Positions 53,581 through 54,737 of a stretch of 64,000 nt of DNA are shown one piece after another; the first letter of the stretch is position 1; each line of letters opens with the position of its first letter. The notes beneath the pieces are model-generated. The model was not told the DNA's origin and ran no database searches. It saw nothing but the letters and a program-made list of their open reading frames with translations. Made by a program: the position numbers and the translations under genes. This DNA comes from a virus (Duplodnaviria; Caudoviricetes), in IMG/VR virus record IMGVR_UViG_3300019370_000055, positions 32,001 to 96,000 of that record, one strand, 5' to 3'.

Positions 53581-53657
53581 TCGCAAAGTAGTTTAATTGG
53601 AAGAACACTCTGGTGACGTGCTGGGGATGGATACTGGTTCGAGTCCAGTCTTTGCGA
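53581..53657 (+). tRNA. degenerate tRNA-like element
   Basis: Acceptor TCGCAAAG/CTTTGCGA, T arm ACTGG-TTCGAGT-CCAGT; irregular anticodon arm, no CCA. Confidence 0.55.
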
Positions 53658-53693
53658 ATTTCAAAATTCAAAGATTAAAAGGAGAAATGAAAC

Positions 53694-54332
53694 ATGAACA
53701 CTGAAACTATGACCGTACATAAGGCTCTTGCTGAACTGAAGGTGCTTGACAGTCGAATTGAGAGCGCAATTCTAAGTGGCGACTTTGTTATCACTAAGAA
53801 GAACAATCAGGATACCGTAAAAGGTAAGACGGCAGAACAGTATAAGGCCAAGGCAGCAGAGGTTTTCCAGAAGGCATCTGATTTGATTCTTCGCCGTAAC
53901 GCCATTAAGAATGCTGTAGTTGTTTCTAATGCTAAGACTACAGTAAAGATTGGTGATAAGGATTATACGGTGGTCGAGGCCATTGAAAAGAAGAATCACG
54001 GCATGGACTATTATGTGCAGCTTCGTGATGTTCTGCGCCAGCAGCTTGCCAAGCAGAAATCCGAACTGGAGAAGCATAATGCCTCCCTCCAGCAGAAGGC
54101 CGAACAGTTTGTAACTGGCCTGATGGGTGGTAAAGAGGTTAAGACTGATAGTGCTGAATTTACTACTGCGGTAGATACATACATCAAGTCTAACACTATG
54201 ACGTTGCTTGATCCGCTTGGTATTGAAAAAAAGATTGAGGAACTGGATGATATGATCAACTCGTTCCTGCCTGAAGTTGATGCGGCCCTGTCGGTGAGTA
54301 ATGCGGTAACAACTATTACCATCGAGTATTAA
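53694..54332 (+). CDS. helical protein resembling the DIP1984 family
   Basis: MTVHKALAELKVLDSRI...IKNAVVVSNAKT...YTVVEAI...EVDAALSVSNA; family recognised from memory. Confidence 0.5.
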   Translation: MNTETMTVHKALAELKVLDSRIESAILSGDFVITKKNNQDTVKGKTAEQYKAKAAEVFQKASDLILRRNAIKNAVVVSNAKTTVKIGDKDYTVVEAIEKKNHGMDYYVQLRDVLRQQLAKQKSELEKHNASLQQKAEQFVTGLMGGKEVKTDSAEFTTAVDTYIKSNTMTLLDPLGIEKKIEELDDMINSFLPEVDAALSVSNAVTTITIEY

Positions 54333-54343
54333 GCAAGTTATCT

Positions 54344-54737
54344 ACTCGCTGCATAACGAAAACTGCGAACCATAACACGCCTGAGTTTTGGTGATGTTTT
54401 GAGGTGTAAATTAATAAAAACTTCACCGCCTATATCAAAACTTACAGTCTTAGTAAGTTTTACATAAAAATCAAATAGATGATTTTATATTGTAAAATAT
54501 TAAAAAATTCTAATAGTGTGAATAGCCGATATTAGGGCTAATTCAAGATTAGATTAAAAGGCTGTAAAGTTCAAGGCTAAAAGCTGAAGGTTCAAACTTC
54601 AACGTTCAAAGTTTATGAATCTTCAAAGTTGAAAGATTAGGCAACAAAGAACAAAGTTTTACAAAATCCTTGGCAGATGGTTTTTGGAATTGTTATGCTT
54701 GTCCAGCGGCTCACCACAAGGCTGTTATGTAGCGAGT
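54344..54737 (+). ncRNA. putative RNA of about 395 nt with a phased heptamer tract
   Basis: 14-bp terminal stem, no ORF, heptamers at 54566-54659. Confidence 0.6.

Follow-up and report, generated by a model that had tools for sequence, protein, structure and literature searches.

A predicted end-closed, doubly knotted phage RNA that extends the RAGATH-27 motif, carries phased 7-nucleotide units and follows a gene for a helical protein

Large structured RNAs whose function is unknown are uncommon, and time and again they have opened up new biology. Two such classes, GOLLD and ROOL, typically lie near transfer RNA (tRNA) genes and in phages (PMC5737381). The Rfam motif RAGATH-27 (RF03100) is an orphan candidate small RNA with a model of 86 positions. 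In other settings, oligomeric proteins read short repeats at a fixed spacing on single-stranded RNA: HutP recognises UAG triplets spaced by 7 nucleotides (nt), and TRAP can also occlude a ribosome-binding site in which its repeats occur. For DIP1984 proteins, by comparison, we know of no RNA partner. Here we describe a phage locus that invites comparison with each of these systems, consisting of a gene for a helical protein of 212 amino acids (53694..54332, + strand) and a region immediately behind it (54344-54737) that, on comparative evidence, is a conserved, end-closed, doubly knotted non-coding RNA of the + strand. The locus lies in a stretch of 64,000 nt, hereafter the window, which corresponds to bases 32001-96000 of a 124-kilobase (kb), 97% complete phage record in IMG/VR (IMGVR_UViG_3300019370_000055); close relatives place the phage in the mouse gut.

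The homologous region was gathered from viral and metagenome contigs, with chance matches of the pattern scan (L027, L031 and L053) excluded from the locus set, and falls into seven lineages; the alignment used throughout, A1, holds 21 sequences. Single distant proteins used as queries for more loci returned one to four viral loci each. The ends of the RNA are joined by a helix of 15 base pairs (bp), P1, in which the 5' strand ACTCGCTGCATAAC(G) at 54344..54358 pairs with (T)GTTATGTAGCGAGT at 54723-54737, closing 394 nt. A first-pass annotation made from the letters of the DNA had proposed a stem enclosing about 395 nt just after the stop codon, and had named the absence of that stem from homologues as grounds for abandoning the idea. 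The stem is kept: among 20 distinct relatives P1 is paired in 98.7% of cells, and seven of its 15 pairs have changed on both sides, while in slid controls of the same alignment the paired cells fall to about 40%. Several of the P1 pairs are G-U, so that the + strand is the strand that folds. The same annotation had seen no open reading frame (ORF) in the enclosed region, and this too holds, in that none of 60 amino acids or more lies within 54344-54737, where the sole ORFs are one of 36 amino acids on the - strand and one of 56 (54677-54847). Translation by code 11 opens no frame, nor does a reassignment of TGA, TAG or TAA to an amino acid; of 153 codons, no more than 88 are open. The predicted fold of the whole RNA has an energy of -107 kcal/mol, against -77 +/- 5 for shuffled sequences (z -5.9).

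Overlapping the first strand of P1, the 5' domain (54345..54428) contains a conserved CGAAAAC..AACCAUAACA block and is homologous to RAGATH-27 by alignment with the Rfam model. Its H-type pseudoknot is built from stem a, CGCC/GGUG (54378-54381 with 54403-54406), and stem b, GGUGA/UCACC (54390-54394 with 54423-54427), the latter of a different yet complementary sequence in each of the seven lineages. The P2 helix (54371-54377 with 54691-54697) reaches from this domain to the far end of the RNA and shows one compensatory change, A-U to G-C, within the subfamily. A local hairpin, AAAACTTAC/GTAAGTTTT (arms also given as AAAACUUAC/GUAAGUUUU; 54437-54445 with 54453-54461), had already been picked out by the first-pass annotation, and is compensated in five of the seven lineages and absent from two. 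Its UUACAG can instead pair with CUGUAA at 54562-54567, a long-range alternative that is retained in all lineages with G-U changes only. The hairpin is followed by a poorly conserved, AU-rich region with indels and a lineage-specific hairpin, GCCG..GGGC (54462..54561), then by two arrays of 7-nt units, and finally by a 3' domain (54660..54737) that includes AAAUCCUUGG and is near-invariant in the subfamily. Within the 3' domain, the P6 helix pairs CCUUG with CAAGG (54668-54672 with 54717-54721) and leads into GCUG and the 3' strand of P1. P6 crosses P2, and the RNA is thus knotted twice. Single-sequence helix searches for P2 and P6 did not rise above shuffled sequences, and because helices of 5-7 bp arise by chance, the weight of both rests on their fixed position and on covariation across families.

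Rfam was searched at E-values up to 10 over 53400-55100 and 54300-55010, and at the gathering threshold over the whole window. The sole meaningful row was RAGATH-27, whose model positions 1-86 align to 54345-54428 at 36.2 bits (gathering cut-off 76.1); GOLLD, ROOL, RNase P, tmRNA, riboswitch and ribozyme models gave no match, and the other rows were at chance level. Close relatives likewise give sub-threshold RAGATH-27 scores of 37-54 bits at the matching place. Matches above the cut-off occur in contig L061 (91.9 bits) and in Dulem virus 39 (77.2 bits), in both cases directly behind gene homologues of 40-45% identity and starting 11-25 nt past the stop codon, as the window copy does. Because these matches occupy the equivalent place behind homologues of the gene, RAGATH-27 is the 5' end of the present RNA class, and the full-model alignment identifies the single hairpin of the Rfam model with pseudoknot stem b. 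On this alignment the window RNA is a diverged full-length member of a class of which RAGATH-27 records the first 86 nt. The earlier statement that no description of such an RNA was known therefore gives way for the first 85 nt or so and stands for the remainder, which is uncatalogued in Rfam; a literature search on RAGATH-27, DIP1984, T5.085/phrog_1491 and T5 stable RNAs found nothing relevant. A tmRNA-like or RNase P-like identity, prompted by the closed ends, the pseudoknots and the tRNA setting, was rejected, as there is no T-arm or CCA, no conserved set of RNase P blocks and no model match.

The gene that precedes the RNA belongs to a large phage family. Its product gives a full-length match to the PHROG 1491 profile (E 2.2e-54, residues 3-211 on profile positions 2-210 of 211), and the protein family comprises 2265 clusters at 50% identity, with a homologue in 744 phage records. 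Thirteen records from unrelated groups were opened, including T5, Dulem virus 39, Bacillus phage Deep Blue, Pseudomonas phage KIL4, Vibrio phages pVp-1 and GRLPWR, Salmonella phages SSE-121 and SE131, Erwinia phage Special G, Klebsiella phage KPP-1, Aeromonas phage LAh_6 and Lactococcus phage P1048. All 13 have a gap of 339-830 nt directly after the gene, in 12 cases without any annotated gene; the gap of Dulem virus 39 contains four tiny ORF calls (34-48 amino acids) and tRNAs. Other neighbours vary among the 13 phages, and tRNA genes usually adjoin. End-closing helices of 14-21 bp spanning 305-401 nt are found in T5, pVp-1, KPP-1, GRLPWR, P1048, L061 and L062, and in T5 the elements follow one another as P1, CGAAA block, P2 (AUCUUAC/GUAAGAU), pseudoknot (CCUCG/CGAGG and CAGCGGU/ACCGCUG), A-rich repeats, P6 and P1, the P2 arms being wholly unlike those of the window yet complementary. 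In P1048, KPP-1, SE131, Deep Blue, T5 and GRLPWR, the best match of a covariance model of the 3' domain trained on gut phages only falls exactly where it is expected, with E-values that are weak (3e-4 to 0.75). For P6, 13 of 16 phage RNAs carry AAAUCC-NN-G at 45-50 nt before C-NN-GG-CUG in perfect Watson-Crick pairing, and the pairs of the middle dinucleotide take six forms across phage families. Among the comparisons made here, this covariation is the clearest cross-family proof of an RNA, and by the same comparisons gene and RNA are co-inherited across phage families.

Three of the opened loci bear additional features. In T5, a 719-nt 'RNAX, stable RNA with unknown functions' is annotated by a tRNA-Arg gene (L054:5584-6302), 1.9 kb from T5.085, and the gap behind T5.085 has no RNA annotation, its sole feature being a predicted promoter at the 3' end. 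In the variable region of the Special G gap (L064:2253-2316), a sub-threshold match to the tRNA-like part of the Y RNA-like YrlA (44.5 bits, cut-off 69) suggests that this lineage may contain an embedded tRNA-like module. In LAh_6, a ProQ-like RNA chaperone is annotated directly upstream of the homologue (L066:1109-1405), and the gap of about 600 nt has no period-7 repeats.

The two arrays occupy the stretch between the variable region and the 3' domain. Array 1 (54566..54614) consists of seven contiguous units of the form AAnnnUn, and array 2 (54625..54659) of five 7-nt units whose invariant columns recur at period 7; between them is a variable spacer of 10 nt (54615-54624) with indels in relatives. 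The 13 heptamers listed by the first-pass annotation are borne out for 12, as seven plus five in two arrays, whereas the thirteenth falls in the spacer. Across A1, the AA at positions 1-2 of array 1 is invariant in all seven units and the U at position 6 in six, while the remaining positions drift freely and neither array contains an indel. The invariant columns and the lack of indels imply that the register is under selection. Self-identity at lag 7 is 0.60, against 0.37 +/- 0.04 for shuffles (maximum 0.49; z 6.3). Conservation at period 7, which the earlier annotation had put forward as a check, is thus borne out as a selected register in relatives and, across phages, as period-7 self-similarity with z of at least 3 in 12 of 15 RNAs, but not in the other three. 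The consensus of the unit varies by clade at constant period, from AAAGNUN to UUAAGUN in Vibrio phages and AGNUUAU in P1048, a pattern more in keeping with a reader specific to the phage than with a host factor common to all.

Repeats of this kind could in principle act as DNA. Contiguous 7-bp repeats are a known format of DNA sites, as in the heptad arrays bound by omega of pSM19035, and no base-pairing partner of the arrays was seen in A1; iterons, an operator or a centromere-like site for a DNA-binding protein would agree with both points. The arrays, however, are embedded between covarying helices with G-U pairs, which would be A-C mismatches on the opposite strand; the fixed AA and U alone would make a poor double-strand site; and every array is on the coding strand, behind a PHROG 1491 homologue. 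A DNA-level function is accordingly very improbable in our estimation.

The 212-amino-acid protein offers few handles by sequence. PHROG 1491 is labelled 'tail fiber protein', but the genes of its homologues sit in tRNA or early regions and not among tail genes, and the label looks like a propagated mis-annotation. No family was found for the protein in Pfam, NCBIfam or PADLOC, a profile search of the PDB gave nothing below E 0.07, and a search of the ESM Atlas returned unnamed phage clusters only. An AlphaFold2 model, with a predicted local distance difference test score (pLDDT) of 90, consists of long helices and four short strands. Its top Foldseek structure is 3kdq (rank 1, E 0.01, probability 1.0), and in an all-against-all comparison with VIA-align the same structure comes first (Z 10.1, root-mean-square deviation 6.2, 151/152 residues; next chain Z 7.0), a match to be taken as likeness and not as proof of kinship, since helical folds easily reach middling Z scores. 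The structure 3kdq is that of a Corynebacterium diphtheriae protein of unknown function, presumably DIP1984 itself. The DIP1984 hidden Markov model (HMM) NF038048 (cut-off 70 bits) gave no match at E up to 1, nor at E up to 10 in six frames, and the DUF6847 signals of five among 40 family members, with E-values of 0.019 and above, are not significant. What had been called a DIP1984-like gene thus keeps that name for its fold, by Foldseek and VIA-align, and loses it as regards membership of the sequence family.

The protein is also predicted to form a symmetric homodimer. The interaction prediction score from aligned errors (ipSAE) is 0.62 against a best control of 0.00. Of 30 proteins whose solved structures are pairs of one chain, 20 attain this mark, as does one of 23 whose structures are single chains. 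The three runs agree on at least 93% of contacts, with a partner pLDDT of at least 87, and the multi-chain crystal of 3kdq may have contributed to the result. The conserved basic residues of the family (K16, R21, K36, R67, R68, K72 and K100) are all in the N-terminal half.

The first-pass annotation had offered a guide or a type III antitoxin-like RNA as possible identities, the one point in its favour being that a protein gene adjoins a repeat-bearing RNA; the repeats would then be processed to units that neutralise or guide the protein. That suggestion finds no support in the comparison with known systems. There is no match to a PADLOC defence model, the helical bundle resembles 3kdq and not a ToxN-type endoribonuclease, and the RNA is 3' of the gene rather than 5'. 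ToxI-type repeats are about 34-36 nt long, against units of 7 nt here, whose four variable nucleotides are too few for guiding. The module moreover belongs to lytic phages, T5 among them, and resides in their tRNA regions. A toxin-antitoxin-like pair or an RNA-guided system is therefore about as remote in our view as the DNA iterons, and both are poorly supported.

Units similar to those of the arrays occur a second time at the locus, in the leader of the gene itself. The leader between the tRNA-like element upstream and the start codon is 35 nt long, and three phased heptad-like units, TCAAAAT TCAAAGA TTAAAA (53661..53680, + strand), run through this 5' untranslated region (UTR) into the Shine-Dalgarno sequence, forming a candidate autoregulatory operator. 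The window as a whole holds four matches to YCAAANNYYAAAR, two of which overlap 53661..53680. Such leader units also precede the homologues in T5, Dulem virus 39, KIL4, SSE-121, KPP-1, Special G, L060 and L061, and a phased pair of units is found upstream of 13 of 17 homologous genes but only 12 of 129 other ORFs at the same loci (Fisher p 7e-9). This arrangement fits a protein that would read the units and feed back on its own translation.

Taken together, these observations suggest an autoregulated protein-RNA particle, made of the 212-amino-acid protein and the RNA of about 394 nt and derived from a transcript of tRNA-operon type, a reading that we rate at about even. The transcript would begin at a promoter-like site and continue through the tRNA-like element, the gene and the RNA, the last of which would be excised by tRNA-processing and double-strand-specific nucleases. 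P1 would join the ends of the RNA, P2 and P6 would lock the pseudoknotted 5' domain to the conserved 3' domain, and the two single-stranded AAnnnUn arrays would be displayed between the domains. There they may serve as a phased binding track for dimers of the DIP1984-fold protein, yielding a ribonucleoprotein. Surplus protein would then settle on the two to three units by its own ribosome-binding site and shut off translation. For a protein oligomerising along the RNA, the pointers are the homodimer prediction and the heptad-like units of the 5' UTR only. We further advance, more tentatively, that such a self-throttled ribonucleoprotein, with DIP1984-fold dimers on a 7-nt track, is widespread in hundreds of large phages including T5, where it might act on host RNA or translation, or against tRNA-directed defence.

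The same data can be turned towards an RNA that works alone, as a machine or scaffold like GOLLD or ROOL, with the gene merely sharing its tRNA-operon transcript and the heptads acting as tertiary or multimerisation elements. The complex, doubly knotted fold would suit such a role, as would an acidic protein without an RNA-binding domain and a genomic habit, near tRNAs and in phages, as written for GOLLD and ROOL (PMC5737381). It is harder to reconcile with a gene that immediately precedes the RNA in all 13 of the highly diverse phages inspected, whose other neighbours change, with a unit sequence that shifts by clade as a co-evolving reader would predict, and with the presence of heptad-like units in the 5' UTR of that very gene, and we judge it unlikely.

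The layout of the transcript bears on a further alternative. On the + strand the block runs from the promoter-like site through the tRNA-like element and the 212-amino-acid gene to 676 gene-free bases and a YunG-like gene at 55009. The promoter-like site (TTAAAA, 16 nt, TATAAT; 53545..53572, + strand), found by a consensus scan that is not in itself evidence of function, is directly 5' of the tRNA-like element and is the putative start of the joint transcript. The tRNA-like element (53581..53658, + strand) is called tRNA-Arg(ACG) by ARAGORN, one of eight tRNA calls in the window, and matches the Rfam tRNA model RF00005 at 44.9 bits (cut-off 29). Its acceptor, D and T arms are normal, while the anticodon region has 17 nt instead of 13 and a non-standard pair; two programs call a tRNA whose anticodon arm is 4 nt over-long, and its earlier description as a degenerate tRNA-like element was a fair one. 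Relatives of the window locus have a tRNA at the equivalent place, and the element, whether or not it works as a tRNA, is a probable signal for RNase P/Z processing 5' of the gene. A tRNA begins 3-4 nt past P1 in KPP-1, L061 and Dulem virus 39, which would suit excision of the RNA.

Such an arrangement would be expected if the whole region were a cis-acting processing, stability or regulatory module, that is, a large 3' UTR or leader that directs cuts by RNase III, P or Z and the expression of the flanking genes and has no function in trans. In this vein one may cite the tRNA-like element 36 nt before the gene, the true tRNAs that start 3-4 nt past P1 in some relatives, the resemblance of P1 to a processing stem of rRNA type, and the ability of an arm at 54746-54776 to pair with 54981-54992 before the ribosome-binding site of the next gene. 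Yet 300-450 nt with two pseudoknots and an array conserved in register far exceed the needs of a processing signal, and the downstream gene changes among phage families while the RNA core stays. A purely cis-acting module is, to our minds, a slightly poorer prospect than the RNA-only machine.

The arm in question belongs to a hairpin 3' of the RNA, AGAAUGUCUGA/UCGGGCAUUCU (54746..54776, + strand), which has two G-U pairs and no U tract and is paired in 100% of cells in relatives; it is not a canonical terminator. Its 3' arm (AUCGGGCAUUCU) can also pair with AGAGUGUCCGAU (54981-54992), just 5' of the Shine-Dalgarno sequence of the YunG-like gene. All three arms are kept in every lineage, and lineage E shows one compensatory change between the second and third. 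The alternative pairing may constitute a switch controlling the YunG-like gene. Inserted between this hairpin and the next gene is a stem-closed module of about 200 nt (54780-54977; CAGAATTTATTATGG/CCATAATAAATTCTG), with compensatory changes in the D lineage, that is restricted to the window's lineage and the L004/L006-type lineage. The ends of the module are near-exact copies of the 23S ribosomal RNA (rRNA) sequence that binds L11 (GTPase-associated centre), split by an insert of about 120 nt; true rRNA contigs align to 54796-54829 with three mismatches and then run on as GCGTAATAGCTCAC.

Several observations weigh against the protein-RNA particle. The protein family is acidic to neutral, with a median isoelectric point of 5.6 (range 4.7-7.6) and a net charge of -2 for the window protein, in which no known RNA-binding domain was matched. 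The sampled gene-RNA pairs are few compared with 744 records. Three of the 15 homologous gaps tested, those of LAh_6, SE131 and KIL4, have no detectable period-7 repeats, and the arrays are therefore not universal. The leader units are a lead only, because the choice of motif followed inspection of the sequences and the 17 genes share descent. A deletion variant without the gene and the 5' half of the RNA is present in five contigs (L019, L024, L034, L041 and L050; for example L019:1060-1100). At its junction the start codon and five further codons are fused to the middle of the RNA, with P1, P2 and the pseudoknot gone and the heptads and 3' domain kept. The variant differs from lineage G at only about three positions, so the deletion is recent, and because the variant circulates the module is dispensable.

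Expression data add little weight to the particle. Five mouse-gut RNA libraries contain the stretch, as contigs, which are unable to show RNA ends or levels, and three of four metatranscriptome runs examined, all of one study, have even cover of the whole phage, as DNA would give, and so do not demonstrate transcription. In the fourth, an rRNA-depleted run, a contig over 54401-55153 has a depth of 34 against 7-8 for contigs of the flanking genes, a weak hint of RNA expression. In the rRNA-depleted metatranscriptome X17 the contig over the RNA starts at 54401 with an Illumina adapter attached, a start that may reflect an RNA fragment end common at this point of the pseudoknot domain, or else an assembly artefact.

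The surroundings of the locus are centred on RNA. A fusion protein of 730 amino acids (56193-58385), 1.2 kb 3' of the RNA, unites an AAA_33 kinase, a calcineurin-like phosphoesterase and a T4 Rnl1-type RNA ligase in a one-chain RNA-repair enzyme, and a homologue of PemK/MazF-type toxins (Pfam E 1e-34) is encoded at 52134-52484 with no recognisable antitoxin gene adjoining. Farther away, on the - strand, a skipping-rope RNA (Rfam RF02924, 55.3 bits, cut-off 36.7) is located at 5928-6019, within a five-tRNA cluster at 5734-7398. The neighbourhood in Dulem virus 39 includes RtcB. This company of tRNAs, MazF homologue, RNA-repair fusion, RtcB and ProQ-like chaperone suggests a role in RNA repair, translation takeover or counter-defence, and it is on the setting among tRNA and RNA-repair genes that a part in takeover or counter-defence is proposed.

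In the first place, the locus extends an orphan Rfam motif from 86 to 300-450 nt, defines its architecture, pairs it with a gene that is its constant partner and places it in the model phage T5. It would correct the 'tail fiber' label given in many inspected phage records and provides a first clue to the function of the DIP1984-like fold; should the heptads serve as a protein track, they would represent a new way to build a phased RNA-protein assembly. New from this window are a diverged subfamily with sub-threshold Rfam scores, a deletion variant, a unit consensus that is specific to clades, covariation of P6 in six forms, the units of the 5' UTR, the dimer prediction and, immediately downstream, the inserted module that mimics rRNA.

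Among described systems, RAGATH-27 is the nearest to the RNA. The two share a single-stranded block, CGAAAAC..AAAC.AUAA, followed by a hairpin, and they align over the whole model; the window copy nevertheless falls below the cut-off, and the Rfam model covers less than a quarter of the RNA and takes in neither helix P1 nor P2, nor the strand that pairs with its hairpin in the pseudoknot, the two arrays of heptads, the 3' domain or the link to a protein gene. GOLLD and ROOL are comparable in being large, ornate RNAs of unknown function that adjoin tRNA genes in phages and prophages, whereas the window RNA is smaller, contains phased 7-nt repeats, has a dedicated neighbouring protein gene and matches neither by sequence or model. 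With DIP1984 (3kdq) the protein has the order of helices and short strands in common, but it has 212 amino acids against about 150, and the family HMM finds nothing. The proposed logic of autoregulation recalls TRAP, HutP and the feedback of ribosomal proteins. As with TRAP and HutP, short conserved letters recur at a fixed period with free spacer letters between them, and extra repeats are found by the ribosome-binding site. There is no homology, however: the window protein is a predicted helical dimer with a DIP1984-like fold, and its putative track would be displayed inside a closed, knotted and stable RNA rather than in an mRNA leader.

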